From: a virus
DNA: 35,822 bases
Direction: 5' to 3' (one strand)
UHGV virus genome: UHGV-1355336
Part shown: positions 1-21,703 of the stretch, piece after piece
Numbering within the stretch: position 1 is the stretch's first letter
Layout of the letters: the number at the start of each line of letters is the position of its first letter
Made by a program: the position numbers and the translations under genes
The notes under the pieces: generated by a model
Seen by the model: only the letters and a program-made list of their open reading frames with translations
Databases searched by the model: none
Told to the model about the DNA's origin: nothing

Positions 1-2
1 GG

Positions 3-386
3 CGTAAGGTTTACGCCCGTTTTCTGGATGCGGTGAACTTCGTCAACGGAAACAGTGACGCCGATCCGGAGCAGGAGGTGATCAGCCGCTGGCGCATTGA
101 GCAGTGCAGCGAACTGAGCGCGGTGAGTGCCTCTTTTGTACTGTCCACGCCGACGGAAACGGACGGCGCTGTTTTTCCGGGACGTATCATGCTGGCCAAC
201 ACCTGCACCTGGACCTATCGCGGCGATGAGTGCGGTTATCACGGTCCGGCGGTCGCGGATGAATATGACCAGCCAACGTCCGATATCACGAAGGATAAAT
301 GCAGCAAATGCCTGAGTGGCTGTAAGTTTCGCAATAACGTCGGCAACTTTGGCGGCTTCCTTTCCATTAACAAACTTTCGCAGTAA
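3..386 (+). CDS. L: Minor tail protein L, C-terminal part (gene starts upstream of window)
   Basis: Translation ...KVYARFLDAVNFVNGNSDADPEQEVISRWRIEQ...CSKCLSGCKFRNNVGNFGGFLSINKLSQ matches the recalled lambda gpL C-terminus; reading frame is open to the window edge. Confidence 0.85.
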   Translation, partial: RKVYARFLDAVNFVNGNSDADPEQEVISRWRIEQCSELSAVSASFVLSTPTETDGAVFPGRIMLANTCTWTYRGDECGYHGPAVADEYDQPTSDITKDKCSKCLSGCKFRNNVGNFGGFLSINKLSQ

Positions 387-391
387 ATCCC

Positions 392-1704: not shown

Positions 1705-1722
1705 TGCAAAACATTTTATGTG

Positions 1723-1750
1723 AAACCGCCTGCGGGCGGTTTTGTCGTTT
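1723..1750 (+). terminator. Stem-loop between I and J (AAACCGCC-loop-GGCGGTTT then U-rich); possible attenuator or RNA structure
   Basis: Inverted repeat read directly in the 60-nt I-J spacer; U-tract is interrupted (TTGTCGTTT). Confidence 0.3.
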
Positions 1751-1764
1751 ATGGAGCGTGACGA

Positions 1765-4700
1765 ATGGGTAAAGGCAGCAGTAAGGGGCATACCCCGCGC
1801 GAAGCGAAGGACAACCTGAAATCCACGCAGTTGCTGAGTGTGATTGATGCCATCAGTGAAGGGCCGATTGAAGGTCCGGTGGATGGATTAAAAAGCGTGC
1901 TGCTGAACAGTACGCCGGTGCTGGACAGTGAGGGGAATACCAACATCGCCGGTGTCACGGTGGTGTTCCGGGCTGGTGAGCAGGAGCAGACTCCGCCGGA
2001 GGGATTTGAATCCTCCGGCTCCGAGACGGTGCTGGGTACGGAAGTGAAATACGACACGCCGATCACCCGCACCATCACGTCGGCAAACATCGACCGACTG
2101 CGCTTTACCTTCGGTGTGCAGGCACTGGTGGAAACCACCTCAAAGGGGGACCGGAATCCGTCGGAAGTTCGCCTGCTGGTTCAGATACAGCGTAATGGTG
2201 GCTGGGTGACGGAAAAAGACATCACCATTAAGGGCAAAACCACCTCGCAGTATCTGGCCTCGGTGGTGGTGGATAACCTGCCGCCGCGCCCGTTTAATAT
2301 CCGGATGCGCAGGATGACGCCGGACAGCACCACAGACCAGCTGCAGAACAAAACGCTCTGGTCGTCATACACCGAAATCATCGATGTGAAACAGTGCTAC
2401 CCGAACACGGCACTGGTCGGCGTGCAGGTGGACTCGGAGCAGTTCGGCAGCCAGCAGGTGAGCCGTAATTATCATCTTCGCGGGCGCATTCTGCAGGTGC
2501 CGTCGAACTATAACCCGCAGACGCGGCAATACAGTGGTATCTGGGACGGAACGTTAAAACCGGCATACAGCAACAACATGGCCTGGTGTCTGTGGGATAT
2601 GCTGACCCATCCGCGCTACGGCATGGGGAAACGTCTTGGTGCGGCGGATGTGGACAAATGGGCGCTGTATGTCATCGGCCAGCATTGCGATCAGTCGGTG
2701 CCGGACGGTTTTGGCGGCACGGAGCCGCGCATCACCTGTAATGCGTACCTGACCACACAGCGCAAGGCGTGGGATGTGCTCAGTGATTTCTGCTCGGCGA
2801 TGCGCTGTATGCCGGTATGGAACGGGCAGACGCTGACGTTCGTGCAGGACCGACCGTCGGATAAGGTGTGGACCTATAACCGCAGTAATGTGGTGATGCC
2901 GGATGATGGTGCGCCGTTCCGCTACAGCTTCAGCGCCCTGAAGGACCGCCATAATGCCGTTGAGGTGAACTGGATTGACCCGAATAACGGCTGGGAGACG
3001 GCGACAGAGCTTGTGGAGGACACGCAGGCCATTGCCCGTTACGGTCGTAACGTCACGAAGATGGATGCTTTTGGCTGTACCAGCCGGGGGCAGGCACACC
3101 GCGCCGGGCTGTGGCTGATTAAAACAGAACTGCTGGAAACGCAGACCGTGGACTTCAGCGTGGGTGCCGAAGGGCTTCGCCATGTACCGGGCGATGTCAT
3201 TGAAATCTGCGATGATGACTATGCCGGTATCCGCACCGGCGGGCGCGTGCTGGCGGTAAACAGCCAGACCCGGACGCTGACGCTCGACCGTGAAATCACG
3301 CTGCCATCTTCCGGCACCACGCTGATAAGCCTGGTTGACGGGCAGGGGAGTCCGGTCAGCGTGGAGGTTCAGTCCGTCACCGACGGCGTGAAGGTGAAAG
3401 TGAGCCGTGTTCCTGACGGCGTTGCTGAATACAGCGTATGGGGGCTGAAGCTGCCGACGTTGCGCCAGCGCCTGTTCCGCTGCGTGAGTATCCGTGAGAA
3501 CGACGACGGCACGTATGCCATCACCGCCGTGCAGCATGTACCGGAAAAAGAGGCCATCGTGGATAACGGGGCGCACTTTGACGGCGACCAGAGCGGCACG
3601 GTAAATGGTGTCACGCCGCCAGCGGTGCAGCACCTGACCGCAGAAGTCACCGCAGACAGCGGGGAATACCAGGTGCTGGCCCGCTGGGACACGCCGAAGG
3701 TGGTGAAGGGCGTGAGCTTCCTGCTTCGCCTGACCGTGGCAGCGGATGACGGCCGTGAGCGGCTGGTCAGCACGGCCCGGACGACGGAAACCACTTACCG
3801 CTTCACACAACTGGCGCTGGGGAACTACAGGCTGACAGTCCGGGCAGTAAATGCGTGGGGGCAGCAGGGCGATCCGGCGTCGGTATCGTTCCGGATTGCC
3901 GCACCGGCAGCGCCGTCGCGGATTGAGCTGACGCCGGGCTATTTTCAGATAACCGCCACGCCGCATCTTGCGGTTTATGACCCGACGGTACAGTTTGAGT
4001 TCTGGTTCTCGGAAAAACGGATTGCGGATATCAGGCAGGTTGAAACCACAGCCCGCTATCTTGGCACGGCGCTGTACTGGATAGCCGCCAGTATCAATAT
4101 CAAACCGGGCCATGATTATTATTTTTACGTTCGCAGTGTGAACACCGTTGGCAAATCGGCATTCGTGGAGGCTGTCGGTCAGCCGAGTGATGATGCATCA
4201 GGCTATCTGGATTTTTTCAAAGGCGAGATAGGGAAAACCCATCTGGCTCAGGAGCTGTGGACGCAGATTGATAACGGTCAGCTTGCGCCTGACCTGGCTG
4301 AAATCAGGACGTCCATTACGGATGTCAGCAATGAAATCACGCAGACCGTCAATAAGAAACTGGAAGACCAGAGTGCTGCAATTCAGCAGATACAGAAGGT
4401 TCAGGTTGATACAAATAATAACCTGAACAGCATGTGGGCTGTGAAGCTGCAGCAGATGCAGGACGGACGCCTTTATATCGCGGGTATTGGTGCCGGTATT
4501 GAGAACACCCCTGACGGCATGCAGAGTCAGGTGCTGCTGGCGGCGGACAGGATTGCGATGGTTAATCCTGCGAATGGCAACACAAAACCGATGTTTGTTG
4601 GTCAGGGCGATCAGATATTCATGAACGACGTGTTCCTGAAACGCCTGACGGCTCCCACCATTACCAGCGGTGGAAATCCGCCGGCATTTTCCCTGACACC

Positions 4701-5247
4701 AGACGGAAAGCTGACCGCTAAAAATGCGGATATCAGCGGTAATGTGAATGCAAATTCAGGGACGCTCAACAATGTCACGATTAATGAAAACTGTCAGATT
4801 AAGGGGAAACTGTCAGCCAATCAGATTGAAGGCGATATTGTCAAAACGGTCAGCAAGTCTTTCCCCCGCACGAACAGTTATGCCAGTGGCACCATCACGG
4901 TAAGAATCAGTGATGATCAGAAATTTGACCGGCAGGTCATGATACCGCCAGTGTTATTCCGCGGTGGTAAGCATGAGAATTTCAACAGTAATAACCAACA
5001 GTCATACTGGTATTCAACCTGCCGGTTAAGAGTGACCCGCAATGGTCAGGAGATTTTTAATCAGTCCACGACGGATGCTCAGGGCGTATTTTCCTCAGTT
5101 ATAGATATGCCTGCCGGACAGGGGACGCTGACACTGACATTCACCGTATCTTCATCAGGAGCGAATAACTGGACACCAACAACCAGTATCAGCGATCTGC
5201 TGGTTGTGGTGATGAAAAAATCCACAGCAGGTATCAGTATCAGCTGA
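1765..5247 (+). CDS. J: Tail tip host-specificity protein J (central tail fibre)
   Basis: 1160 aa; N-terminus [54 protein letters not shown] is lambda-J-like; fibronectin-like central repeats; C-terminal ~250 aa diverge from recalled lambda J. Confidence 0.9.
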
Positions 5248-5264
5248 ATTTTATAACCCAGAAC

Positions 5265-5290
5265 GGGCGTCAGAAATGACGCCTTTTTTA
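5265..5290 (+). terminator. Rho-independent terminator after J
   Basis: GGCGTCA-GAAA-TGACGCC hairpin followed by TTTTTT, 18 nt after the J stop. Confidence 0.6.
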
Positions 5291-5313
5291 TTGCAGAAAA
5301 GCGAGAGGTAATT

Positions 5314-5913
5314 ATGCGTAAACTTTATGCCGCCATTTTGTCCGCAGCCATTTGTCTGGCCGTATCCGGTGCGCCTGCATGGGCGTCTGAACATCAGTCC
5401 ACGCTGAGCGCGGGGTATCTTCATGCCCGGACGAACGTTCCCGGCAGTGATGATCTGAACGGGATTAACGTGAAATACCGTTATGAGTTTACGGACACAC
5501 TGGGGATGGTGACGTCGTTCAGCTATGCAGGAGACAAGAATCGCCAGATTACCCGTTACAGCGATACCCGCTGGCATGAAGATTCCGTTCGTAACCGCTG
5601 GTTCAGCGTAATGGCGGGGCCGTCTGTGCGCGTGAATGAATGGTTCAGCGCGTATGCGATGGCGGGTGTGGCTTACAGCCGTGTGTCGACTTTCTCCGGG
5701 GATTATCTCCGCGTAACTGACAACAAGGGGAAAAAGCACGATGTGCTGACCGGAAGTGATGACGGTCGCCACAGCAACACGTCTCTGGCGTGGGGAGCTG
5801 GCGTGCAGTTTAACCCGACCGAATCCGTGGCCATTGATGTCGCTTATGAAGGCTCCGGCAGTGGTGACTGGCGCACTGACGGGTTCATCGTGGGTGTTGG
5901 TTATAAATTCTGA
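5314..5913 (+). CDS. lom: Lom outer-membrane protein (Ail/Lom/OmpX family)
   Basis: 199 aa, signal peptide [24 protein letters not shown], beta-barrel pattern ending ...FIVGVGYKF; canonical position after J. Confidence 0.9.
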
Positions 5914-5939
5914 TTAGCCAGGTAACACAGTGTTATGAC

Positions 5940-5967
5940 AGCCCGCCGGTTCAGGCGGGCTTTTTTG
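5940..5967 (+). terminator. Rho-independent terminator after lom
   Basis: GCCCGCC-GGTTCA-GGCGGGC hairpin followed by TTTTTT. Confidence 0.65.
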
Positions 5968-5977
5968 TGGGGTGAAT

Positions 5978-8900
5978 ATGGCAGTAAAAATTTCAGGTGT
6001 ACTGAAAGACGGCACAGGAAAACCGGTACAGAACTGCACAATCCAGCTGAAAGCAAAACGTAACAGTACCACGGTGGTGGTGAACACGCTGGCATCTGAA
6101 AATCCGGATGAAGCCGGGCGTTACAGTATGGACGTTGAGTACGGTCAGTACAGCGTTATTCTGTTGGTGGAAGGATTCCCGCCGTCACATGCCGGGACCA
6201 TCACCGTGTATGAAGACTCACAACCGGGTACGCTGAATGATTTTCTCGGTGCCATGACGGAGGATGATGCCCGTCCGGAGGCACTGCGCCGTTTTGAGCT
6301 GATGGTGGAAGAGGTGGCGCGTAACGCGTCCGTGGTGGCACAGAACACGGCAGCCGCGAAGAAGTCAGCCAGCGATGCCGGCACATCAGCCCGTGAGGCG
6401 GCAACCCATGCGACTGATGCTGCAGGCTCAGCAAGCGCAGCCAGCACGTCAGCCGGACAGGCCGCGTCGTCGGCTCAGTCAGCATCTTCCAGCGCAGGAA
6501 CGGCATCAACAAAGGCCAGTGAAGCATCGAAAAGTGCTGCTGCTGCAGAGTCCTCAAAAAGCGCGGCAGCTACCAGTGCCGCTGCGGCGAAAACGTCAGA
6601 AACGAATGCGGCAGCGTCACAACAATCAGCAGCCACTTCTGCATCCGCCGCGACCACGAAGGCGTCAGAAGCAGCCACCTCAGCCCGGGATGCGGCGGCC
6701 TCAAAAGAGGCAGCGAAATCATCAGAAACGAACGCATCCTCGAGCGCCAGTAGTGCCGCTTCCTCGGCAACGGCGGCAGGCAATTCCGCGAAGGCGGCAA
6801 AGACGTCTGAGACAAACGCCAGGTCTTCTGAAACGGCAGCGGAACAGAGTGCCTCAGCTGCGGCAGGCTCAAAAACAGCGGCTGCGTCGTCTGCCAGTGC
6901 AGCGTCAACAAGTGCCGGGCAGGCCTCAGCCAGTGCTAGCGCCGCCGGAAAATCGGCAGAAAGCGCCGCATCGTCCGCTTCAACAGCCACAACGAAGGCT
7001 GGCGAAGCCACTGAACAGGCCAGCGCAGCAGCGAGGTCTGCTTCCGCAGCGAAGACATCCGAGACGAACGCGAAAGCGTCGGAAACCAGCGCAGAATCCT
7101 CAAAAACGGCTGCCGCATCGTCCGCCAGTTCGGCGGCGTCATCGGCATCATCTGCGTCTGCTTCAAAAGATGAGGCGACCAGACAGGCATCAGCAGCGAA
7201 AGGCAGCGCCACGACGGCATCCACGAAGGCGACAGAGGCAGCTGGTAGTGCGACGGCGGCAGCTCAGAGCAAAAGTACGGCGGAATCCGCGGCAACGCGC
7301 GCCGAGACAGCAGCAAAACGGGCAGAGGATATTGCATCCGCCGTGGCGCTTGAGGATGCAAGTACGACGAAAAAGGGGATAGTACAGCTCAGCAGTGCGA
7401 CCAACAGTACGTCTGAAACGCTGGCGGCAACGCCAAAGGCAGTAAAATCAGCCTATGACAATGCAGAGAAACGTCTGCAGAAAGACCAGAACGGCGCTGA
7501 TATACCCGATAAGGGACGCTTCCTGAACAACATTAACGCGGTCAGTAAAACAGACTTTGCTGATAAGCGTGGTATGCGTTATGTGCGGGTTAACGCTCCT
7601 GCAGGTGCAACATCTGGAAAATATTACCCTGTTGTTGTTATGCGTTCTGCTGGCTCAGTAAGCGAACTGGCATCAAGGGTCATTATCACCACGGCAACGC
7701 GAACCGCAGGCGATCCGATGAATAACTGCGAGTTTAACGGATTTGTTATGCCTGGTGGCTGGACTGACAGGGGGCGTTATGCTTATGGCATGTTCTGGCA
7801 ATATCAAAACAATGAACGAGCCATCCACTCAATAATGATGAGTAATAAGGGCGATGATTTGCGCTCTGTGTTCTATGTTGATGGCGCTGCTTTCCCTGTT
7901 TTTGCGTTTATCGAAGATGGCCTGTCAATATCCGCACCTGGTGCTGATCTCGTTGTTAATGATACGACCTATAAGTTTGGGGCAACAAATCCGGCGACTG
8001 AATGTATCGCGGCGGACGTTATCCTTGATTTTAAGAGTGGGCGTGGTTTTTATGAGTCTCATTCGTTAATCGTTAACGATAACTTGTCGTGCAAAAAACT
8101 TTTTGCCACAGACGAAATTGTAGCGCGTGGTGGTAATCAGATTCGAATGATAGGTGGGGAGTATGGGGCATTATGGCGTAATGATGGCGCTAAAACTTAC
8201 CTGCTGCTTACCAATCAAGGTGATGTTTATGGTGGATGGAATACATTAAGACCGTTTGCTATTGATAACGCAACCGGCGAACTGGTTATTGGAACCAAGC
8301 TGTCTGCAAGTCTGAACGGTAACGCATTGACAGCAACAAAGCTGCAAACGCCAAGACGGGTTTCTGGTGTTGAGTTTGATGGTTCCAGAGATATTACTTT
8401 AACCGCCGCGCATGTGGCTGCTTTTGCCAGAAGGGCAACGGATACGTATGCCGATGCGGATGGGGGCGTTCCATGGAATGCCGAATCAGGCGCTTACAAT
8501 GTCACCCGCTCTGGCGACAGCTATATTCTGGTTAACTTCTATACCGGAGTCGGAAGTTGCCGGACCTTGCAGATGAAGGCACATTACAGAAATGGAGGTC
8601 TGTTCTACCGTTCCTCAAGAGATGGCTATGGTTTTGAGGAAGACTGGGCAGAAGTTTATACCTCGAAAAATCTTCCACCAGAAAGCTACCCAGTCGGCGC
8701 ACCAATCCCGTGGCCATCAGATACCGTTCCGTCTGGTTATGCCCTGATGCAGGGGCAGACTTTTGACAAATCTGCTTACCCGAAACTTGCAGTTGCTTAT
8801 CCGTCAGGCGTGATCCCTGATATGCGTGGCTGGACGATTAAGGGCAAGCCCGCCAGTGGTCGTGCCGTATTGTCTCAGGAACAGGACGGCATTAAATCGC

Positions 8901-9328
8901 ACACCCACAGCGCCAGCGCATCCAGTACGGATTTGGGGACGAAAACCACATCGTCGTTTGATTACGGCACTAAATCCACGAATAACACTGGTGCGCATAC
9001 CCATAGTGTTAGCGGTACGGCTGCTTCAGCCGGTGCACATACCCATTCGATGACATTTGTTTCAGGTGGTTCCAGTGGTGCTCCGGGAAGTGGATCACCT
9101 GATTATTCTAAATACAGTGTTAACACTTCTTCTGCAGGCGCTCATACGCACTCTGTATCGGGTACTGCTGCAAGCGCAGGTGCACACGCACATACTGTCG
9201 GTATTGGTGCTCATACGCACTCCGTTGCGATTGGTTCACATGGACATACCATCACCGTTAACGCTGCTGGTAACGCGGAAAACACCGTCAAAAACATCGC
9301 ATTTAACTATATTGTGAGGCTTGCATAA
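5978..9328 (+). CDS. stf: Side tail fibre protein (Stf/StfR-like) with Ala/Ser-rich repeat rod and His-rich C-terminal domain
   Basis: ATG at 5978 gives [27 protein letters not shown]... (lambda Stf-like N-terminus); ~330 aa of low-complexity A/S/T repeats with recurring KTSETNA units; C-terminus has repeated GAHTHS / HxH motifs. Confidence 0.85.
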
Positions 9329-9912
9329 TGGCATTCAGAATGAGTGAACAACCACGGACCATAAAAATTTATAATCTGCTGGCCGGAACTAATGAATTTA
9401 TTGGTGAAGGTGACGCATATATTCCGCCTCATACAGGTCTGCCAGCAAACAGTACCGATATTGCACCGCCAGATATTCCGGCAGGCTTCGTGGCTGTTTT
9501 CAACAGTGATGAGGCATCGTGGCATCTCGTTGAAGATCATCGGGGTAAAACGGTTTATGACGTGGCTTCCGGCGACGCGTTATTTATTTCTGAACTCGGT
9601 CCGTTACCGGAAAATGCCACTTGGTTATCCCCGGAAGGGGAGTTTCAGAAGTGGAACGGCACAGCCTGGGTGAAAGATGCAGAAGCAGAAAAACTATTCC
9701 GGATCCGGGAGGCGGAAGAAACAAAAAACAGCCTGATGCAGGCAGCGAATGAGCATATTGCGCCACTTCAGGATGCTGTAGATCTGGAAATCGCAACGGA
9801 GGAAGAAACCTTGTTGCTGGAAGCCTGGAAAAAGTATCGGGTGTTGCTGAACCGTGTTGATACATCAACTGCACCTGATATTGAGTGGCCTACGAACCCT
9901 GTCAGGGAGTAA
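9328..9912 (+). CDS. tfa: Tail fibre assembly chaperone Tfa
   Basis: 194 aa, start overlaps stf stop (TAATG); [54 protein letters not shown]... is typical Tfa. Confidence 0.85.
9751..9867 (+). repeat. Direct repeat copy 1 (3' part of tfa); copy 2 lies in the downstream tfa fragment
   Basis: [30 protein letters not shown] coding stretch recurs near-identically at ~10800-10913. Confidence 0.6.
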
Positions 9913-9966
9913 TCATTGGGATTATGCCGCAGCACGTCTTAAGCAAGAACGTGCTGCGGTTGGATG

Positions 9967-10635
9967 CTATTTTTTCCCTGAAGCGGAAAACATTACTACA
10001 GTACCTTGAACCTTGGTTTTAACATTCTCGAAATGCTCTGAGAGTATATGTGTTAAGCCTTCTTCGGAATCTTTTGTGTTTGAAAAGATACCTTTCTGAT
10101 TGTAAATGCGCATCAGTTTTTGACCGAAGCTATTGTGCACAACTCCATCGCCAAGAATTGTGGCTCCGTATAGAGTTCCATCGTCAGTTAAGGCCTGCGC
10201 CGCATTGCGTATTACACAGCTTTTTGTAGATATATTTCCAGGCAGGCAGTGAAGAAGGTAAAACATGGAAATGGAATCAAATTGACCATGTAACGCCGCG
10301 GGATAAGGTTCAAAAACATCATGGCTAATTTTATGTTTAATTTTTGATTCCCCAGCCCTTGTAGATGCCGCGTTCAGGCTAGCTTCGTTCAAATCCATTA
10401 AAGATATCAGACTACTCTCAGGTACGTGAGTAAGGTAAAAACCAGTTCCAACACCAATATCCAGATGGTTGTTACCTAAATGTTCCAGAAAGTGTGGAAG
10501 AAGGTGTTCCTTTGTAGGACATCCCCATGCAAGCCGATTTGATACTCCCAAAACCCACCAGTCATAAAGCTTTAGGGTAAGTGGTGTGTAAATTTTAGCC
10601 CCATCATCTGTGTTTTTTTTCATTAATTTCACCAT
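9967..10635 (-). CDS. Class I SAM-dependent methyltransferase (small-molecule/protein type); resembles K-12 DLP12 ybcY but apparently intact
   Basis: 222 aa with motif I LDIGVGTGFYL; sits between tfa and a tfa fragment, the recalled ybcY position. Confidence 0.6.
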   Translation of the reverse strand: MVKLMKKNTDDGAKIYTPLTLKLYDWWVLGVSNRLAWGCPTKEHLLPHFLEHLGNNHLDIGVGTGFYLTHVPESSLISLMDLNEASLNAASTRAGESKIKHKISHDVFEPYPAALHGQFDSISMFYLLHCLPGNISTKSCVIRNAAQALTDDGTLYGATILGDGVVHNSFGQKLMRIYNQKGIFSNTKDSEEGLTHILSEHFENVKTKVQGTVVMFSASGKK

Positions 10636-10691
10636 GTTATAGTTTTATTTGTGAATTAAATCAATTATGGCGATGAATTACAAGGGGTTAA

Positions 10692-10997
10692 ATGCTGCCG
10701 CAGCATAGCGATATTGAAATAGCCTGGTATGCTTCGATACAGCAGGAGCCGAATGGCTGGAAGACCGTCACCACACAGTTCTACATCCAGGAATTCAGTG
10801 AGTATATTGCGCCACTGCAGGATGCTGTAGATCTGGAAATCGCAACGGAGGAAGAAAGATCGTTGCTGGAGGCATGGAATAAATATCGGGTGTTGTTGAA
10901 TCGAGTTGATACATCAGTAGCTCTGGGTATGAAGCTGTTTGTAACTCATGTTACAGTAACAGCCATTACTATCTCGAGGGTGCAAAATGTATATTGA
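10692..10997 (+). pseudogene. Tail fibre assembly gene fragment (tfaX-like remnant)
   Basis: Only the C-terminal Tfa-homologous block ([39 protein letters not shown]) is present; N-terminal part unrelated; track start is a non-ATG codon. Confidence 0.6.
10800..10913 (+). repeat. Direct repeat copy 2 (tfa 3' homology)
   Basis: Near-identical to 9751-9867 at nucleotide level (tattgcgccacttcaggatgctgtagatctggaaatcgcaacggaggaagaaa). Confidence 0.6.
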
Positions 10998-11124
10998 TTT
11001 GATATTTTATAAATTTACTTCGAATCTGGCACGTCAACTTTTGATTAAAGTAATATCAGTTTTCGGCGAAAAAAGGACCGTGTACATGAGACGATTTCAT
11101 ACAAGAATAACAAAAATATGAATA

Positions 11125-11160
11125 TGCTCCCAATGCAATATATGTTTTGCATTGGGAGCA
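11125..11160. terminator. 14-bp perfect-stem hairpin 20 nt downstream of the hydrolase gene
   Basis: TGCTCCCAATGCAA-tatatgtt-TTGCATTGGGAGCA; AT-rich flanks on both sides. Confidence 0.45.
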
Positions 11161-11180
11161 AATAGCGGAATATTTTGAAA

Positions 11181-12665
11181 TTATTGTATTTCTGCTTCAG
11201 AATTTCCTGGGCAGTATATATTTTCTGGTTTTTGTGGAGTGATCAGGTGATGTACAACTGCTTTATCTACACATAAATTAACTCCGGTGAGAGCTAATGT
11301 ATGCCCATCACCATTTATTGTTAGTAACGGGCTGGAAAATTTCTCTGCCATCTTACGGGCATTAATCCAGGGCGTTGTTGGGTCGTATTTGTGTGCTACA
11401 AACAGTAAACCAGAGGGCAGAACAGTATTTTTCAGGCGAGTTTTGTTCAGGTCGCTATGTATTGGCCATAATTCACAAAAATCAGGTGAATCGGAACGTC
11501 CATTGTCAAAGTTAATAGCCGGGAAGGCATTCGCAAGAGCGTCTTTTCGGGATTTTCGCTCTTCTGGTGTTAATTGCTCATCCCCCTGATCTACACAGAG
11601 GATTACCCCCGAAGCATCGCTTGACTCTTCTGAGGCTATCGGAGCACTGAGCGCAGTTTCAATTTCATTACTGACAATCCCCTGAGAGAACTGGCGTATG
11701 GCAGTTGCAAGGGTTGGCCATGATGAACGCCATAGCAGAAGGTCTGTTGTTAATGATATGAGTTCATCTGAAGATATATTTTCTCCCTTACTGTCTAATA
11801 AAGGTTTGTGATGTAATTTTGATAATAGCTCATGGAACTGAGTTATTGCCTTATCTCTGTCTGAAGAAAGCGGGCAACTTTTTGTACGCGCACACCAGGA
11901 TGCAAAGCGATCAAACGTTTCCTGATAACTCTGTGCCTGTTTGAGTTGCCATGTGAAGTTGTCCTCCAGGTCATCGATATCGACGACTCCATCAAGAACG
12001 ATAGATCTTACGTTGTAGGGAAAACGTTCTGCATATAAGGCTGCAATTTGAGTTCCATACGAATACGCCACGGCTGTCAGTTGTTTATCCCCCAAGGCTT
12101 GCCTAATACGATCAATATCGTATACAGCCTCGTTAGAGCCGATATGGCGAATGACTTCGGCCCCGGTATTATGGATACAGGCATTAATTTTATTTAATAC
12201 TTGTTGCTTTTCGGTTATGTTTTCCTGAGTCTCTGTATCTGATTGCCGGCAGTTTATTGTCGGAGTGGACTGTCCGACGCCTCGAGGATCAAATCCAATA
12301 ATATCCCATGACTCACGAAGATTTGTGACTGGCCAGTCAAAGTTAATATAAGGATTTATGCCTGGTAACCCGGGACCACCACTTATTATCAGGATACTTC
12401 CTTTATGCTTGCTTTTTGCCGGCAATTTTGTCAACGCTAGTTTGACTTGTGATTTTTTTTCATAAGAAGCATCTCCGCCTGTGTCTGTATATTTTAATGG
12501 AACAGACAAATAACCACATAGTAAGTCAGGAGACGGTTTTTCCTCACCAAACCAGTGGTTGAATTGACTGGCCATACAGGATTGCCACTGTATCTGCTGG
12601 GCAGATACGGTTACTGGTAGAAGTAACGTTAAAACAACTTTGAAATGAGTAATTATTTTTCGCAT
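11181..12665 (-). CDS. Secreted alpha/beta-fold hydrolase (peptidase/esterase-like), function unknown
   Basis: 494 aa; N-terminal signal peptide MRKIITHFKVVLTLLLPVTVSAQ; nucleophile-elbow-like VAYSYGT; AT-rich cargo context. Confidence 0.6.
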   Translation of the reverse strand: MRKIITHFKVVLTLLLPVTVSAQQIQWQSCMASQFNHWFGEEKPSPDLLCGYLSVPLKYTDTGGDASYEKKSQVKLALTKLPAKSKHKGSILIISGGPGLPGINPYINFDWPVTNLRESWDIIGFDPRGVGQSTPTINCRQSDTETQENITEKQQVLNKINACIHNTGAEVIRHIGSNEAVYDIDRIRQALGDKQLTAVAYSYGTQIAALYAERFPYNVRSIVLDGVVDIDDLEDNFTWQLKQAQSYQETFDRFASWCARTKSCPLSSDRDKAITQFHELLSKLHHKPLLDSKGENISSDELISLTTDLLLWRSSWPTLATAIRQFSQGIVSNEIETALSAPIASEESSDASGVILCVDQGDEQLTPEERKSRKDALANAFPAINFDNGRSDSPDFCELWPIHSDLNKTRLKNTVLPSGLLFVAHKYDPTTPWINARKMAEKFSSPLLTINGDGHTLALTGVNLCVDKAVVHHLITPQKPENIYCPGNSEAEIQ

Positions 12666-12851
12666 TGTGTCTCTGAATATCGGAATAAAGATAAGATTTG
12701 AATATATTGAGGTCTTGTGTTGCGGTAAGAGATTACACGTTATGACATAGGTTAAATGCTTACAAAATTAGTGGATATTGCCTACTTGTAACTGTAAACA
12801 AATTCCCCGGGGTTATACAATACCACCGGGGAGAAAATCTGGTTAACTTCG

Positions 12852-13805
12852 TTAAAAGGTGTACTTAAGACCAGCAGTAGTGATGAAGTTATAGTTTTCT
12901 ATGCCTGCACCATTTTTGCTGTAGTCTGAAGTGTTATCATTGTGATCATAAAGTGAAGTATTACCTTTTTTATTCGTAACCCGATTCCATGCGCCTTCAA
13001 CATAAACCTTTGCGTTAGGTGTTACGTAATAACCTGCATTGACTGCAACAGAATAGTAATTTTGGTCTTTGACTTTACTGCGATAAGTGATTCTTTTTCC
13101 TGGGTCATAGTGCTCATCGTTATCAGATGCTTCCACCCAGCCGCTGTATTTAAATGTGCCACCTAGCTCAAAATCTTCATAACGATAACTTCCAGTCAAG
13201 CCAATGTAGGGCATTTTAAAACGTTGTTTGTAGCCGATTGCTCTTTCTCCATTCGGGAAGGAGCCGATATCATCTCTGAATCCCTCCTCAGAACTGTAGA
13301 TATAGGAACCACCTCTGGCTGTAAAGCTATAACGGCTTTCCTGATATCCGGCCATGAGTCCCAGGCGGTAATTGGGTTCGTTGAGGAGCCAGCCTTTGAT
13401 ATTCAGATCAAATTCGTTGGCATAATTGAGTTGTGTATCAGGGTGCCTACTTTCATCTGTCCAGGTTCCGGGGTTACTGGAATCCATCCAGTCCTGATCG
13501 ACCATATTGCCACCTCGGCTGTCGAGAGTAGTCCAGCCCGCAGCCCCAATAGATATCTGGGGCATCAAATCCCAATTAATTGCACCTTTAATAATTGCAG
13601 CGTTATTGAATTTCCAGTCGAGTTGACTGACTTTTCGGCCTCCTTCTTCAGCTAGATAAACGCGCTCTTTTGTTTTTCCGCTCAGAGTTCCAAGACTAAT
13701 GTCCGCATTTATGTTGTCAGGAGTAAACGATATAGTCTCGGTAGAAGCAAAAGAGCTGATCGCAATAGGGGTTGTCAGAACTATTCCCAGAAGTTTCGCC
13801 CGCAT
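12852..13805 (-). CDS. ompT: Outer membrane protease OmpT (omptin)
   Basis: 317 aa; matches recalled E. coli OmpT over its whole length apart from a few substitutions (signal peptide MRKLLGIVLTTPIAISSFA..., ends ...ITTAGLKYTF). Confidence 0.9.
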   Translation of the reverse strand: MRAKLLGIVLTTPIAISSFASTETISFTPDNINADISLGTLSGKTKERVYLAEEGGRKVSQLDWKFNNAAIIKGAINWDLMPQISIGAAGWTTLDSRGGNMVDQDWMDSSNPGTWTDESRHPDTQLNYANEFDLNIKGWLLNEPNYRLGLMAGYQESRYSFTARGGSYIYSSEEGFRDDIGSFPNGERAIGYKQRFKMPYIGLTGSYRYEDFELGGTFKYSGWVEASDNDEHYDPGKRITYRSKVKDQNYYSVAVNAGYYVTPNAKVYVEGAWNRVTNKKGNTSLYDHNDNTSDYSKNGAGIENYNFITTAGLKYTF

Positions 13806-14227
13806 AAAAGTTCTCCATTCAATCGTTTTAATGATTGAATATGTATTTTTTATATCTAACTTAATGAGTCAATCACATATTGCTCCACTGTTTATATTTT
13901 GTTTAGTATTGAATGATTATCACAATGCGCTATCTGTTTTTGGTTTAATTATCTGTTATTATTTTATGTTGCGGTTTTACTGTGTGGTTTTTTATGCTTT
14001 TGTGGTGTTTTTATCTATTTAAGCGCCATGCCTTTAAAGGCATATAAGCGAAAATAGCATGAGGTTTATCCTCAATTGCTATGTTTTTTAGTACAAAAAA
14101 GAGGGACAAAACTGAGACACATAAGGCCTCACAATGGCTTGCAAGGCTTTACATGTTTTGAGGTAGTGGGACGTGTGAGCGCAGAGATGGCGCGGTAATT
14201 TGTTGACTTAAAATGTCGTTCTAGGAA

Positions 14228-14272
14228 CTTCTAAGTCGTGGGCCGCAGGTTCGAATCCTGCAGGGCGCGCCA
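14228..14272 (+). other. Phage attachment core: 3' terminal 45 nt of tRNA-Arg(UCU) (argU type); not a complete tRNA gene
   Basis: CTTCTAAGTCGTGGGCCGCAGGTTCGAATCCTGCAGGGCGCGCCA matches the recalled argU anticodon loop to CCA end; 5' half of the tRNA absent; integrase stop lies 16 nt downstream. Confidence 0.75.
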
Positions 14273-14287
14273 TTACAATTCAATCAG

Positions 14288-15451
14288 TTACGCCTTCTTT
14301 ATATCCTCCATAATTCCACAGTGGGACATATTTGGGACATTATCACCAAAAATGTCGTCTATTTTCCTTGCATGCTCTGTCAAATGATTAGGCGCAAGGT
14401 GAGCATACCTACGAACCATTTCTATGGACTCCCATCCGCCCATTTCCTGAAGCACAGATAATGGGACGCCTGACTGGATCAGCCAGCTTGCCCAGGTGTG
14501 TCTGAGGTCATGGAAACGGAAATCTTCAATTCCTGCACGACGACAAGCTGATAGCCATGATGTCTTGCTGTCGATGCGCATCTTCCTGACCGCAGGCGTT
14601 GATGTTCCATCTGCTCGCTTAGCCGCCTTGGTATGTACAAACACCCATTTGTGATGCTTGCCTATTTGATCACGCAACACTTTACAGGCGGTATCGTTCA
14701 GCGCCACACCAATGGCGCGGTTTGATTTGCTCTCTTCTGGATTCACCCAGGCAACTCGTCGCTGCATGTCGATTTGTTGCCATTCCAGATTTATGATGTT
14801 CGACTTTCTCAGACCAGTTGCCAGCGCAAACTTGACGACAGATTTCAGTGGTTCGGGGCACTCATCAATAAGGCGTTTTGCTTCCTCCTTTTCCAGCCAT
14901 CTGACTCGCTTGTTTCTGACCGCTGGTATCTTGATGACAGGCGCTTTTTCCAGCCACTTCCAGTCGCGTTCTGCAGCACGGAGAATGGCCTTTATCATGG
15001 CAAGATGCTTTGCCTTTGTCTGAGTTGATACTGGCTTTGGTTCATAAACAGGCGGTTCTTTACCTTTCCTGATGGCGGCCTGAACTTTCTGTTTCCATAT
15101 TTCTTTCGTCTTTCTGTTATGCATTCTGCTTACAGCAGAGTAAATCTTTGCCTCCGAGATATCTTTAAGCCTTATACCCTCAAAATGTTCAAGCCAGAAC
15201 TCAATCCGGCTTTTATCTGAATCGAGAGATTTTTTATCAGCTTTTTCCTCAAGCCATCTTAGGCAGGCCTCTTCAAAAGTGACATCAGGTAAATCCCCTA
15301 GCTTTTCTACTCGCCAGAGTTCTGCTTTTCGCTTGTCGTGCAACTCCTGAGCTTGCCGCTTGTCCTTTGTGCCAAGAGATTCCTTAATTCGTTTCCCGCC
15401 CGGGAGCGAATACGAGGCATACCATATTTCATTTCTGCGGAAGAGTGACAT
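14288..15451 (-). CDS. int: Tyrosine integrase (IntD/DLP12-like, P4-integrase family)
   Basis: 387 aa; [35 protein letters not shown]...; C-terminal catalytic R..HDLRHT..Y region; adjacent to tRNA-derived att core. Confidence 0.9.
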
Positions 15452-15678
15452 TTTCTTTCCTCTGTTATGCCATCACCCGCGCTCACCTGGACAGTATGCA
15501 GCGGAGACTGAAGCGCCGCAATGCAGGCTTGCCGTGTTGTGAGGTAAGGAGATTTTGGCTTGGTTGGATCTTTACGTGTTGCCTGTAGGCGGCCTGTTCG
15601 TATCCAGTTGGTGGCGGTTGGTCTGGATATCTTAAGAAACTGACAGGCCTCATCGAGTGTGAGGCTGTATGGCTCCAT
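15307..15678 (-). CDS. xis: Excisionase-like DNA-binding protein (Xis/AlpA-type HTH); 3' end uncertain, overlaps int start
   Basis: ATG-initiated [33 protein letters not shown] (HTH) immediately upstream of int; frame stays open into the int N-terminus. Confidence 0.45.
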
Positions 15679-15983
15679 TATTTCACCTCTTGCTGTGTCA
15701 TTGTTGAAAAATGGATACCAGCTCGTTGCTGCCAGACGATCCAACCGAGAGTCATATCCCATGCCATGTATTCGTTATCGCCGTTTTTTACTCTCCGACG
15801 ATCTATTAAGTCACCGAAACGCTTTTCCATGAATAATTCATAGGCTTCGCGTTCATCTGGCTCTACTTCCAGAGATACGAGTGCGATTTCATAAGCACGG
15901 CGCTCAATATCGTCTCGAACCTCTAGGCTGCTGATTCGTTCTTTGATTTCTTTAATCAGTTCTTTATTGGTAAATGTGGTCAT
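15678..15983 (-). CDS. Hypothetical early protein (YfdT-like by position and size)
   Basis: 101 aa, ATG start, charged helical protein, stop-start overlap with the upstream gene. Confidence 0.45.
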   Translation of the reverse strand: MTTFTNKELIKEIKERISSLEVRDDIERRAYEIALVSLEVEPDEREAYELFMEKRFGDLIDRRRVKNGDNEYMAWDMTLGWIVWQQRAGIHFSTMTQQEVK

Positions 15984-16345
15984 TATGCTCCAGCCTCCGG
16001 TGCTTTTGGCATTACTGCCCAGTGAGTGATATTGACGTTTTCAAGGTCCCCGACCTGAAATGTCCACTGCCATTCTCCGGTTTCTTTTTGTCCCCAGGTG
16101 TACCAGAGAGAACGCCAGCCAATCAGCCAGCCTTCTCCATTAGCATCAAATAACAGAACACTTTCATTTGCTGGTGGCAGTTCAGCTGACACTGGTATTA
16201 TTTTGTTTTCCAGTGCCGCACATTTAGCTTCAAGCGCGTCGAATTTACGTAACAGGTACTCAGCATTTGTTTCGTTCACTTTCAGATCTCGCGGTACACA
16301 TTTCCCGCGAAGAAACCCTTCCATTTCGAAAACATTCATGCGCAT
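15983..16345 (-). CDS. Hypothetical early protein (YfdS-like by position and size)
   Basis: 120 aa, Trp-rich C-terminus; operon-packed with neighbours. Confidence 0.45.
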   Translation of the reverse strand: MRMNVFEMEGFLRGKCVPRDLKVNETNAEYLLRKFDALEAKCAALENKIIPVSAELPPANESVLLFDANGEGWLIGWRSLWYTWGQKETGEWQWTFQVGDLENVNITHWAVMPKAPEAGA

Positions 16346-16872
16346 TTGCGTAACTCCGATAAATCGTTAAAACGTTCCATAAACATCCCGTAGGCATGAC
16401 CCGGTGCCAGTGGAATCACGTTGAACATCTCTGTTGCCGGGATGCCTTCCAGTACAGGCCAGAAAGAGCCATCATCAAGCCCGAGATCGCGGCGTTCGGT
16501 TGCCAGCATGATGAGATCGGCATATTTCACGGGTGTACTCATAACTGGGGGTAACCCGTATTTCTCACGGATTACGGCGTCTATTTTTTCTTCCATCCGT
16601 TTATAGTCAGGAAGAAGGCGTTTCAGTGGTGCGGGAATGTCCTGGCAATACGATTCTGTTGCATCATGCATTAACGCTTCAAAAGCAAATTCCTGCGGCA
16701 CCAGCTGGCTGCAAAGAACCGCATGTTGGGCGACGCTGTAGAAGTGCGAAAGATGACCGGCAAAGCGACAGATATTTGAAAGGGAAACCGCGATATCGTT
16801 AATATCGATGTCGTCTTTATTTATCTTGTCATAATAAAAATGCTTCCCGGAAAAAGTTTTAATAAATGACAT
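16336..16872 (-). CDS. HD-domain phosphohydrolase (YfdR-like)
   Basis: Start at MSFIKTF gives ~178 aa; H...HD motif (VAQHAVL...LMHDATESY). Confidence 0.55.
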   Translation of the reverse strand: MSFIKTFSGKHFYYDKINKDDIDINDIAVSLSNICRFAGHLSHFYSVAQHAVLCSQLVPQEFAFEALMHDATESYCQDIPAPLKRLLPDYKRMEEKIDAVIREKYGLPPVMSTPVKYADLIMLATERRDLGLDDGSFWPVLEGIPATEMFNVIPLAPGHAYGMFMERFNDLSELRKCA

Positions 16873-16999
16873 TTTGTTCTCCACGTATATGCACTGCACC
16901 GCGCTGAATTCTGGTAAAAGGAAGCCCTCACCATCCGGTGATTATTGAGTTAATTACGTTTCCATAAATGCCCCCGCAGGGGCATTTGCAGTAATGAAA

Positions 17000-17824
17000 T
17001 CAGGCGGTGAAAGTACCAATAAAGGTTTCTACTTTGCTGTCTTTGAATTTCTCAACAAGCAGATCACGAAATTCGTTAGCCATTTCTTCCTGCACCGCTT
17101 CCAGCTGAATAATGCGCAGAACCAGTACAGGACGATCGCCAGTGATAATGCTGAGGCGTAATTTAAACGGACGTTCTTTCAGACCTTCAAACGGAACGCA
17201 TTTAAATTCAAATGCCACTGGCATAATGTCTTTGGTCTTCGCTTCGACAGACTCCATCAGGGAGCGTTTGCCGCTGAAGTCATTATCTTCAAAATCAGCG
17301 GTCTGGTTTGCTTCAATCGTGATTTTACGGACTGCCGCAGCCGCTTTTGTTGCTTGAATGGCGTCACCATTAGCATCAAAGCCCACAAGGTAGTCGGCCC
17401 AGTCTTCGATCCATTCTGCCAGTGACTTCTGGGAGTTACGCTCGCCGTTAACAGACAACAGAGCAGAGAACGGTGCTGTCTTTTTCAGTTTGAGAGTGGC
17501 AGTGTTATCTGCGTGACCTGGCTCATCAATAGTACCCAGGTTAAGCACACTGACGGCACGCATATTATCGGCATCGATAAAGCAGCGGGTGCCTTCATCT
17601 GCAAGATCTTTAGAATAACGGGTAAAATCATCGATGCTGGCAGTGGAAAGTGCACCACGGAAACGGAAGCGATTTAAATTAAATTTTTCCAGATCATGAA
17701 TGCGGAAATTCTCAGGCAATGCCACAGCATCGGCACCAATCTTACTGATAATTTCATTAACACCCTGAGCAGAAATAAGGGCATGGATTTGATTAATTGC
17801 GGTTGCGTCTAAGTTCTGAGACAT
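17000..17824 (-). CDS. DUF2303/YfdQ-like phage early protein
   Basis: 274 aa, [30 protein letters not shown]...; same length as recalled K-12 YfdQ. Confidence 0.6.
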
Positions 17825-17889
17825 AATAAGTCCTCACTATATAAAGATATTCAGTGATGAGATAAATAATCAGTTAATTAAGAACGATA

Positions 17890-18252
17890 TTAATGACCTG
17901 CTGCGCGGAGTTTTCCGTCAGGTTCACCGGCAAGAGTCAGTAATTGTCCCTGGTCTTCCTGCAGAATAGTCAGGCGACCACCGCGATTGACATACATCGG
18001 CGTTTCGGTGGTGTCTTCTTCGGAAATTTTCCCGCGGTTAGTCGGGCGAACATATGAGAGTTTGTGTTTGATTTTCACACGGTTCTCATCAAATGGTTCG
18101 ATTTCCAGGTTGAGTGAGACCTTACCTTTGGTTTTCGTGTTCATCACACCGGAAGCGACTTCACTGAGAACTGCGCCGATTTTGGTTTCAAATACGCCGC
18201 CGTCCAGCTCCCCGATAAATGCCTGCACATCAGTACTGCGTTCGCTAGCCAT
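17890..18252 (-). CDS. Hypothetical early protein (YfdP-like); first gene of the leftward operon
   Basis: ATG at 18252 with upstream GAGGAG; MASERSTDVQAFIGELDGGVFETKIGAVLSEVASGV... 120 aa. Confidence 0.5.
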   Translation of the reverse strand: MASERSTDVQAFIGELDGGVFETKIGAVLSEVASGVMNTKTKGKVSLNLEIEPFDENRVKIKHKLSYVRPTNRGKISEEDTTETPMYVNRGGRLTILQEDQGQLLTLAGEPDGKLRAAGH

Positions 18253-18298
18253 TTTGCTGCTCCTCATCATATCGACCCTGTAAGGTCGGTTAGTTTCT

Positions 18299-18400
18299 CC
18301 ACAAAACAGAGAAGAACACCTGCGGTGGCAGCCGCCCGGATGGATTGGGTTATGAGCCCGTCGTCCGGTGATGCTCTTCTCTGTTTTGTAAAAAGAGCGG
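18299..18400 (-). promoter_or_regulatory. Leader RNA element: boxA-like motif (CGCUCUUUUUAC in transcript sense) followed by a long hairpin with 15-bp perfect arms
   Basis: Arms ACAAAACAGAGAAGA (18301-18315) and TCTTCTCTGTTTTGT (18375-18389); boxA-like sequence at ~18389-18400; lies 50-150 nt upstream of the first early-left gene. Confidence 0.35.
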
Positions 18401-18871
18401 TACCAGCCGGAAGCAAGGGTACAAACTGGTACCGCCAAAGCAGTGGCTGTTGTGGTGACCGGTGCTGATCTCCGGCTTGCGGTTATTTCAGACTCTCACG
18501 GGCGTTTAATTGCCCCGCCGAACAGCTCTTTTCCGCAATAGCTGCAATGTCTTTCGCGCATCAGCCTGCGCATTCACCACAACGCTGAGAGCACTTAGCC
18601 AGTTACGGCACCACACTTTGTCGCGGTTCCATAAATGCCCTCATCGTTGCACCCTGGTCTCTTCCCAGGCGTCAAACCGAATCGCCACGCTGGTTAGGCG
18701 TCTTATCAGCATCCTCATTGACTTGCACATTCCGGCTACCTGGTTTGTTTGCCCGAGCAAGGAGTGGATTGTCCCCTTTAACGTCCCCAGACCGCTAACG
18801 ACGCATGTGCCATACGCCGTGTTACAACCAACCTTTCGTTAACAACAGTCTGTTGTTTGTTCAGATAATGA

Positions 18872-19148: not shown

Positions 19149-19781
19149 CGAGAATTATGTTCGTTCTAAATCATGGTTATTGTATTACAGACACTTGACT
19201 ACTGTTGAAACATCAGATTCTAGTGCTTCAATTTGTGCTCTATTAGCTTGGGTCGCCATACCATAGATAGTGTAACTCTTATGCTGCAGCCTACTTAAAG
19301 GGCATCCCTCATGGTTTATTATTGCTGCAAGAGTATTACCATCTTTGACATTTTGAACTCTCTCGAAAGTAGCCACATTTGTGAACAGATGAGGATGTGT
19401 ATTTAACAGGTCATCCGTGATTCTTTTGATCTCTTCTGCATGTGATTTGAATGCTTTTGCTGCATCACTTTCATTAGTTCTTGAGCGGTTTTGTACGAAA
19501 AGGTGTAGTTCAGGTAGTTCGATAAGGTTTTGCTTTGCTTCTTTGTTGAAATCTAAGAACATTTCATCTTGTTCTGACTTGTCAATAGACACTCCATAAA
19601 TAAGTTTAACAAGGTTTTTTATTCCGCGAATTGATGCAGCATCGGCAGTGCAAGGGATAATTATTCTATTTGCCGCGACTACTCCCAATTCTGTGTAGCT
19701 GGCAAAACTTGGATTACAATCAATAAAAAATGTTTTTGCTCTGTCAGAAATGTTTTTATCGGCTTCAAAAGATGCTATTAG

Positions 19782-20976
<1,195 letters not shown>

Positions 20977-21703
20977 TTAGATCTACCAGCAAAGATCGGC
21001 TTTTCTTCCATGCTTCTTTTACTGGGGATGAGCCAATGTGAGATATTAAGCGTGAACAGATATCAAGATCGACATCACCAGGAAGAATATATAAGTTCTC
21101 TGGCATTTTTGTATTAACATCATGGGCTCGTACAAAGTAAGAAGATTCATTTCCTAAACGAGACAAAGGAGATTTGCTAAAACGCTCCTTGATATAACCT
21201 GCGATTGTAACATTTCTGTCTCGCAATTTATTTAGATTTTCTTCCCCGGTACCATTGCCACCAAGAATAATTTCTGAAACGTTTGATTGAGGGCATGAGT
21301 CAATAACCACAACATCTTGATCCGGATGAGATATAGCAAACTCAACGGCAAGATTATATGTAAGAAAAGTTTTTCCTACACCACCTTTGTTGTTCCATAC
21401 TAAATATTTTGTATTGGTGGAAATCATATCTGCTACCCCATCTGTCGCTTCAGTACGTTCATTAATCATTATCGTATCCTGTTGTATAGAATTGTCTATT
21501 ATTTATGTTTTATTTTGGTTTTTTTTGTGTTAGTAACGCACCCAAAGATAACATATGGTCTTTATCTTTTCTTACTTAGGGTAACAGCTCAGTGTTAATC
21601 CATTTTTATGGACCAATGTGCCAAATAAAATTTGTATAAAGATTTTCTATCCTTATCTTTTATCATCTGTGCTCGTTTGCTTTAACGATTGCTAGATGCC
21701 TAA

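Follow-up and report, generated by a model that had tools for sequence, protein, structure and literature searches.

The question raised by this locus is whether a fragment of a tRNA gene, lying between phage tail and cargo genes on one side and an integrase on the other, marks the attachment site of a phage genome or a place where prophages adjoin in a chromosome. The window, that is, the whole stretch of DNA analysed, comprises 35,822 nucleotides of UHGV virus genome UHGV-1355336. We consider it very probable that the region represents the attP, the int-xis module and the cargo of a temperate, lambda-like E. coli phage with DLP12/argU-type integration, presented in virion (cos-to-cos) order. 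The DLP12/argU integration system is classical and already known, and the significance of the locus is small beyond correct annotation.

A core derived from argU

The segment at 14228–14272 (CTTCTAAGTCGTGGGCCGCAGGTTCGAATCCTGCAGGGCGCGCCA) aligns with 45 of 45 identical positions to the 3' 45 nt of an annotated tRNA-Arg of E. coli EC19, a gene to which ARAGORN assigns the anticodon tct. The 5' 32 nt of this tRNA are missing from the window and the core is the 3' portion alone; judged from the sequence, an exact 45-nt match to argU cannot be due to chance. In a five-way alignment of attP, attL, attR, phage 2G7b and the E28 junction, 47 bp (14228–14274) are common to attP, attL and attR, namely the 45 tRNA bases plus TT, and strand exchange would have to be confined to this shared identity. 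The first-pass annotation had described an argU-derived core of 45 nt without the 5' half, which is exact, and the shared identity is here refined to 47 bp. In our reading, the site and the adjoining module are laid out as follows:

13806–14227, no strand: P arm of attP, AT-rich non-coding sequence; its single TGGGAC, at 14167, is a candidate Int arm site
14228–14274, + strand: attP core, the 3' 45 nt of argU tRNA-Arg(UCU) (14228–14272) plus TT
14275–14470, no strand: P' arm of attP; the 3' end of int lies within it, and TGGGAC occurs at 14322, 14333 and 14462
14288–15451, − strand: tyrosine integrase of the IntD/P22-Int type, 387 aa (Pfam Phage_integrase, PF00589, E = 5.5e-47; phrog_10426, phrog_1)
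15307–15681, − strand: excisionase, 124 aa (phrog_2907, positions 2–117 of 117, E = 6.8e-46; Pfam HTH_17 on the longer ORF)

A functional phage-borne tRNA was considered and rejected, as ARAGORN reports zero tRNA genes in the whole window and the Rfam tRNA model gives only a partial match of 19.7 bits, below its gathering score of 29. Annotation of the 45-nt fragment as a tRNA gene is unwarranted. One phage record names it "tRNA-Pro".

The flanks of the core in lysogens

Many complete E. coli genomes carry one ~48-kb prophage in the order fimZ-argU-int ... cos ... J-stf-ompT-core-envY. By BLAST, window positions 1–14274 match a single argU prophage at its right end with 99–100% identity, and positions 14225/14228–35822 match it at its left end with 100% identity. 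Both arms find their match in EC19, W137, 789, EC21Z-014 and others, where they overlap only in the core, and exact attL and attR sites occur in many lysogens, which lends indirect support to Int-dependent recombination with argU. In the lysogen genomes attL is formed by the host 5' 32 nt of argU and the 3' 45 nt, the tRNA being intact beside int, and attR is formed by ompT, the P arm and the 3' tRNA fragment adjoining envY. The left flank of the core in the window equals that of attR in single argU prophages, and its right flank equals that of attL; in the alignment, the P arm is identical to the phage-side flank of EC19 attR and the P' arm to the phage-side flank of EC19 attL. Since the sequences on either side of the core form the opposite ends of one ~48-kb prophage in lysogens, this comparison identifies the site as a true P-O-P' attP, and the attP-type junction proposed at first reading is borne out by the same matches. 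The window is accordingly best described as a phage genome, or as sequence in phage order, rather than as a simple chromosomal prophage.

The P arm has a GC content of 33.6%, as against 48.6% in the whole window, and the sole ORF in its region (13699–14022) found no family match in a Pfam search. Four copies of TGGGAC are clustered on the + strand in 301 bp around the core, against an expectation of 0.1 (P ~4e-6 per 301-bp stretch and ~5e-4 allowing for all window stretches, for a motif chosen post hoc); they are candidate Int arm sites. The integrase stretch is 100.0% identical to that of EC19, in which PGAP names the gene intD (WP_001298992.1), and int lies 16 nt downstream of the tRNA end. 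At the int start, xis and int overlap by 145 nt, and both Int and Xis are full length in the window. The block shared with phage 2G7b stops at 15678, beside the proposed xis start, and this boundary reads as typical lambdoid mosaicism. PGAP calls xis a pseudogene in EC19, E28 and VE-T2; this call is rejected here, the PHROG excisionase match running end to end, and the pseudogene label is unwarranted for xis in this phage.

By analogy with lambda and P22 Int, the integrase, a tyrosine recombinase, would bind the attP core as well as arm sites on either side of it, in the AT-rich P and the P' arm, for which the TGGGAC motifs are candidates, and would then swap strands with the identical stretch of argU in the chromosome. 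Intact Xis would drive the reverse reaction. What is said here of the chemistry of recombination, of arm sites and of any IHF involvement is inferred.

Tail and cargo genes left of the core

The following genes precede the core:

1765–5247: J, tail gene
5314–5913: Lom-like gene, in the tail gene set
5972–9328: side tail fibre
9328–9912: tail fibre assembly
9967–10635, − strand: class I SAM-dependent methyltransferase, cargo (moron) (Pfam Methyltransf_12/23/25/11; phrog_2132 end to end)
10692–10997, + strand: tail fibre assembly remnant, C-terminal part only (Pfam Caudo_TAP, positions 75–121 of 131)
11181–12665, − strand: alpha/beta hydrolase, cargo (Pfam Abhydrolase_1, Abhydrolase_4; phrog_20134)
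12852–13805, − strand: OmpT outer membrane protease (omptin), cargo (Pfam Omptin, E = 2.8e-130, full length; phrog_19858, full length)

The methyltransferase bears the same annotation in EC19 and phage 2G7b, ompT is also annotated in EC19, E28 and 2G7b, and the EC19 homologue of the tail fibre assembly remnant is flagged partial by PGAP. The leftward-transcribed morons ompT, hydrolase and methyltransferase occupy the position of the lambda b region and reach the host via lysogeny. The OmpT protease is of relevance to virulence and to protein-production strains. Along with an iss/bor-like gene, ompT travels on intact, apparently excision-competent argU phages that are kin of the decayed DLP12 of K-12.

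In the window, a ParA-like gene is split by an IS5 element with a target-site duplication. Because of this insertion, the sequence shows that the element was a resident prophage for some time. Such an insertion is somewhat more typical of chromosomal copies, and it counts against reading the window as a phage genome.

Virion order and the cos end

The window runs in the order tail, cargo, att, int/xis, early, Q, lysis and cos, which is lambda vegetative order. Both this order and the layout with tail and cargo genes left of the core and the integrase to its right had been noticed before, and the gene map agrees with them. At its right end lies the following feature:

35776–35822, + strand: right cos end, consisting of the left half of cosN with adjacent sequence, the window stopping 1 nt into a lambda-type cohesive end

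The window ends in ...GGGTCCTTTCCGGCGATCCAACAGGCTACGG and the record of phage 2G7b in ...GGGTCCTTTCCGGCGATCCGACAGGTTACG; relative to the right cos terminus of that record, the window extends 1 nt beyond the homologous position. Beyond the homologous cos point EC19 reads GGCGGCGACCTCGCGGG..., and its small terminase gene follows after 189 bp; GGCGGCGACCT comes next in EC19, ahead of that gene. An arbitrary cut would hit the cos terminus with a chance of roughly 1 in 25,000–50,000. The end at a cos terminus therefore indicates that the source was laid out in virion order, which favours a phage genome over tandem prophages. Against the phage genome counts the offset of 1 nt from the canonical nick position. 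Termination at cos is visible at the right end alone, the first ~13.7 kb of the genome being outside the window. The implied genome is ~49.6 kb, the sum of 35,822 bases and the 13.7 kb that separate cos from the position of the window start in EC19; judged from lambda, this size is packageable. No host genes were found within the window by gene calls and the EC19 gene map.

The same junction is present in isolated phages, as 2G7b, ev243, Turner and Kati carry contiguous ompT-core-int with 98.8–99.3% identity. Other phage records, in prophage order, start or end inside the core or at its end, at window positions 14248–14274, with the exception of one that stops at ~14227. The whole window is matched by no single record of the phage collection, in which Kati comes closest (query 1–18438; 64% of window 1–25000), and none of the complete E. 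coli genomes has it whole. An apparent long match in strain OXA-181 proved to be an ordinary single, partly deleted prophage. An exact 85-nt pattern spanning attP found no match among IMG/VR viral contigs and one 1.8-kb contig among JGI metagenomes, which has the same junction and is too short for context.

Alternative origins of the junction

A core with phage DNA on both sides could also arise at a chromosomal junction of two argU prophages, by tandem dilysogeny or serial integration, with the upstream attR core doubling as the downstream attL core. Such junctions are real: ompT-core-int is contiguous in the chromosome of 79 of 5426 complete E. coli genomes. In E28, phage genes extend for at least 20 kb to either side of the core, with head, tail and ompT before it and int through terminase after it. 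In AST216, a truncated int comes after a full prophage and is succeeded by a second ompT and then ybcH. The IS5 insertion fits a long-resident chromosomal copy, and the window itself, with one int and one core, holds no sequence contradicting a tandem array. However, an end within 1 nt of a cos terminus is unexpected for a chromosomal cut, many genomes have both arms together in an ordinary single prophage, and no complete genome in the collection has the junction together with both arms at window identity. The closest, E28, reaches 99.5% identity over the 1.7-kb junction, whereas it covers 69% of window 1–25000 with an identity of only 96.7%; it shares the junction in a different mosaic and is rejected as a whole-window match. 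We consider a junction of two prophages to be unlikely here. The first-pass annotation had left the choice between a phage or excised circular genome and tandem prophages; the former is favoured by the cos end and by the isolated phages with the junction, and the latter, real elsewhere, is the less likely for this window. If a tandem dilysogen were nevertheless true, the internal attP-like site would allow unit-length phage to be released by Int alone or by homologous recombination. Just upstream of the core, 14178–14227 gives a weak tRNA-like signal of a D-arm and an anticodon-arm. That either the source is a chromosomal argU tandem dilysogen or, separately, this segment is the decayed relic of a phage-borne whole tRNA seems quite improbable to us. 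The relic, if true, would hint at the origin of tRNA-derived attP sites; neither the dilysogen nor the relic would be a new kind of system.

An assembler might also have joined the attR-side and attL-side contigs of a single lysogen across the core, as the exact 47-bp repeat is in both arms. A chimera could likewise give the observed pattern in which the left arm is 100.0% identical to strain 10035210-2 and the right arm 100.0% identical to others, but mosaic arms are normal in lambdoid phages. The repeat is shorter than typical reads and the k-mers of modern assemblers, the junction recurs in four independently deposited phage records, one metagenome contig and closed genomes, and an artefact leaves the cos-terminal end unexplained; we regard it as very improbable. 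There is even less chance that ompT and its neighbours are host chromosome beside a decayed prophage, with the core being a pauD-like attR as in K-12 DLP12. In the genomes examined, ompT does adjoin an argU-like 3' fragment where the argU prophage ends on the envY side, and E. coli K-12 DLP12 has the same arrangement. An attR of 47 bp has also been described (PMC6379469). In the window, however, int rather than envY lies right of the core, and the ompT side is contiguous with a complete-looking module of J, tail fibre and assembly genes and is carried by isolated phages. Phage 2G7b, the EC19 gene map and the five-way alignment refute the left side as host DNA or a DLP12-like remnant. The finding that had been named as decisive against an attP, an ompT side made of host chromosome, is not what is seen: in lysogens the ompT side joins directly onto an intact tail module, and free phages carry it.

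Comparison with known systems

The attP of a phage genome in virion order remains the preferred reading, and its relatives are well known. DLP12 lies at argU with a 47-bp attR repeat and is a ~20.5-kb defective remnant, chromosomally fixed as attL/attR (PMC6379469). Its layout, argU-intD ... ompT-attR, is given by Lindsey et al. 1989 as cited in PMC6379469 and PMC2629481. The present phage resembles DLP12 in its argU target, in the 47-bp repeat length at attR, in the position of int 16 nt downstream of the tRNA end, in ompT adjoining attR, in its lambdoid character and in the PGAP name intD for the int of the matching EC19 prophage. It differs in its size of ~49.6 kb, in looking complete (tail, int, xis, replication, Q, lysis and cos) and in having an unintegrated attP.

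Phages 2G7b (Nesevirus nv2G7b), ev243, Turner and Kati share the contiguous ompT, P arm, 47-bp core and int, whereas their early, immunity and replication regions differ. In 2G7b the methyltransferase, hydrolase and ompT likewise lie left of attP in a record oriented on a lambda-type cos; it carries exo/bet/gam and lambda-like O/P, whereas the window has a YfdP-T module, ParA::IS5 and other regulators.

The attP of phage epsilon34 lies just downstream of int and falls within 43 bp that are shared exactly with argU (PMC2629481). As in the window, it is directly downstream of int and holds the 3' part of the target tRNA. Int/attP DNA of SfI, SfII, SfV and Salmonella phages is about 74–80% identical to the window; these have P22-like or SfV-like virions with other cargo, whereas the present phage is a lambda-like siphovirus that carries ompT. 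The cargo of the Sf phages consists of O-antigen modification genes.

Lambda attP (POP') follows the same logic: its core lies between P and P' arms, int-xis comes directly after it in virion order, dispensable cargo (the b region) precedes it, and the cos termini are homologous. The lambda core is 15 bp and its attB is intergenic between gal and bio, with no tRNA gene. In contrast, the 47-bp core described here rebuilds a tRNA, and the integrase belongs to the P22/DLP12 lineage.

The argU-derived core and its surroundings

Window positions 14228-14272 (CTTCTAAGTCGTGGGCCGCAGGTTCGAATCCTGCAGGGCGCGCCA) align with complete identity to the last 45 nt of tRNA-Arg as annotated in E. coli EC19, a segment that begins in the anticodon loop and finishes with the CCA end. 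The anticodon of the EC19 gene is tct by ARAGORN, i.e. argU. The window lacks the 32 nt that form the 5' part of the tRNA; ARAGORN found no tRNA over the entire 35.8 kb, and the match to the Rfam tRNA model is only partial (19.7 bits vs. a gathering score of 29). These results confirm the first-pass annotation, in which the 3' 45 nt of argU had been noticed without the 5' half. The core common to both prophage ends is 47 bp long (14228-14274), with TT adding two bases to the 45 of the tRNA.

The sub-gathering Rfam alignment covers 14178-14272 and includes a D-arm-like and an anticodon-arm-like stretch upstream of the core. In the GenBank record of the Escherichia phage Turner, an 84-nt "tRNA-Pro" (locus L009, 2392-2475) is annotated across the attP core. 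Two readings of this "tRNA-Pro" and the upstream tRNA-like stretch are possible: an artefact of annotation, or the decayed remains of a tRNA within the P arm.

Genes and intervals around the core
Left of the core: L fragment, K-like peptidase and I-like protein, tail genes
1765-5247: J, tail gene
5314-5913: Lom-like gene, listed with the tail genes
5972-9328: side tail fibre
9328-9912: tail fibre assembly
9967-10635, leftward: SAM-dependent methyltransferase, cargo
10692-10997: tail-fibre-assembly remnant
11181-12665, leftward: alpha/beta hydrolase, cargo
12852-13805, leftward: ompT, cargo
13806-14227: non-coding stretch of 422 bp, 34% GC
14288-15451, minus strand: tyrosine integrase (387 aa), 16 nt beyond the tRNA end
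15307-15681, minus strand: excisionase ORF (124 aa), matching phrog_2907 (PHROG) end to end (E = 6.8e-46)

The xis ORF overlaps the start of int by 145 nt. At the xis position in strains EC19, E28, VE-T2 and OXA-181, PGAP gives only a 63-66-bp "helix-turn-helix, incomplete" pseudogene, and the 124-aa ORF is probably an xis gene that is systematically missed in DLP12-type prophages. Beyond int and xis, the window continues with early genes, the repressor region, replication genes, Q and lysis genes.

Comparison of attP, attL and attR in lysogens

A comparison with 5426 complete E. coli genomes placed the two arms at opposite ends of one prophage: window 1-14274 at the right end (98-100% identity) and window 14225/14228-35822 at the left end (99.9-100%). 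EC19, EC20, EC24, A37, W137, 789 and EC21Z-014 all show this pattern. In EC19, the gene map shows a single lambdoid prophage of ~48 kb, with the order fimZ - tRNA-Arg - intD - ... - Q - lysis - iss - cos/terminase, followed by head - tail - J - lom - stf - tfa - methyltransferase - hydrolase - ompT - [core] - envY. The VE-T2 and OXA-181 prophages have the same ends and are internally deleted. In a five-way alignment the left flank in the window is that of attR, the right flank is that of attL, and the 47-bp core alone is common to all three; the window junction is therefore, by definition, attP (P-O-P'). The alignment and the lysogen gene maps thus support the earlier suggestion of an attP-type junction. 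Because attL consists of 32 nt of host 5' sequence followed by the 3' part of 45 nt, argU stays intact on integration, and a 3' tRNA fragment remains beside envY at attR.

Phage genome or tandem prophages

The same junction could be produced by two prophages in tandem at argU, and this has real support. The ompT-core-int arrangement is contiguous within the chromosome in 79 of the 5426 genomes (~1.5%). In strain E28 (locus L002, 19553-22152) two lambdoid prophages, both apparently full-length, are arranged head to tail, and phage genes extend for 20 kb to each side of the junction. Strain AST216 (locus L006, 19553-23881) has a full prophage and, after it, a truncated int, a methyltransferase, a second ompT and then host ybcH. 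The end of the window, however, points to a phage genome instead. The window terminates in ...GGGTCCTTTCCGGCGATCCAACAGGCTACGG, the phage 2G7b record, which is oriented on cos, terminates in ...GGGTCCTTTCCGGCGATCCGACAGGTTACG, and EC19 continues past the window end with GGCGGCGACCTCGCGGGTTTTCGC..., the small terminase gene lying 189 bp further on; the window therefore runs just 1 nt beyond the lambda-type cos nick, a position that an arbitrary chromosomal cut would hit with a chance of ~1 in 25,000-50,000. Moreover, the distance from cos to the first base of the window is 13.7 kb in EC19, which implies a genome of ~49.6 kb; the window would cover all of it but the first 13.7 kb. By the standard of lambda, ~49.6 kb is a packageable size.

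A further pointer to a phage genome is that four phage isolates, 2G7b, ev243, Turner and Kati, have ompT, core and int contiguous, at 98.8-99.3% identity. Records of the PhiR series, in prophage order, begin or stop inside the core or at its end (window 14248-14274); one prophage-order phage record differs, stopping at ~14227. A metagenome contig of 1776 bp (OLEA01004031.1; locus L008, 1-340) also bears this attP junction, differing at 2 of ~300 aligned bases, and is independent evidence of the unintegrated configuration sampled in nature. An assembly chimera across the 47-bp repeat is very improbable, as the junction recurs in many independent records. Between the two alternatives first proposed, we thus favor a phage genome in virion order and regard a tandem-prophage junction as unlikely. 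Serial integration at argU gives genomes with two ompT copies.

Candidate arm sites and recombination

The attP, attL and attR sequence relationships, intact int and xis genes and many lysogens with exact junctions are established here. Following the lambda/P22 Int paradigm, Int would bind core-type sites within the 47-bp identity as well as arm-type sites on both arms, P and P', and the AT-rich P arm would be the target of a host bending protein. The phage would integrate by strand exchange with argU, and Xis would drive the reverse reaction. Four TGGGAC motifs, all on the plus strand (14167, 14322, 14333 and 14462) and in the context (A/T)(G/T/A)TGGGAC(A/G), lie within 301 bp around the core, where ~0.1 is expected; the whole window has 12 on both strands. 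For this motif, picked post hoc, the clustering has P ~4e-6 per 301-bp stretch and ~5e-4 across all window stretches. Judged from sequence, the four are candidate integrase arm-type sites.

Relation to known elements and additional genes

The element is a DLP12/argU system, whose architecture is already known and offers nothing new. PMC6379469 (citing Lindsey et al. 1989) places DLP12 at the argU 3' end with a 47-bp attR repeat. In epsilon34, attP is directly downstream of int, inside 43 bp that match part of argU exactly, and the epsilon34 and DLP12 integrases share ~80% identity (PMC2629481). SfI, SfII, SfV and some Salmonella phages have DNA ~74-80% identical to the int/attP region of the window. 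In contrast to the K-12 DLP12, the element in the window appears complete and is seen unintegrated, and it is a different mosaic from 2G7b and ev243 to the right of xis.

The right arm is ~1.35 kb longer than that of EC19, most of which is explained by a complete IS5 copy (19782-20976, 1195 bp) with terminal inverted repeats GGAAGGTGCGAACAAG / GGAAGGTGCGAATAAG, a DDE transposase (19850-20842) and a 4-bp TTAG target duplication at its borders. The IS5 splits a minus-strand ParA-family gene adjoining the immunity region (19185-19796 and 20930-21469), and this gene is unbroken in the EC19, VE-T2 and OXA-181 prophages.

The interval from the lysis genes to cos contains an iss/bor-like lipoprotein gene (~33957-34298, minus strand) and a TonB-like ORF (~34677-35057, plus strand); their counterparts in EC19 carry the annotations "increased serum survival lipoprotein Iss" and "TonB family protein". 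Both are further lysogenic-conversion cargo of the phage that carries ompT.
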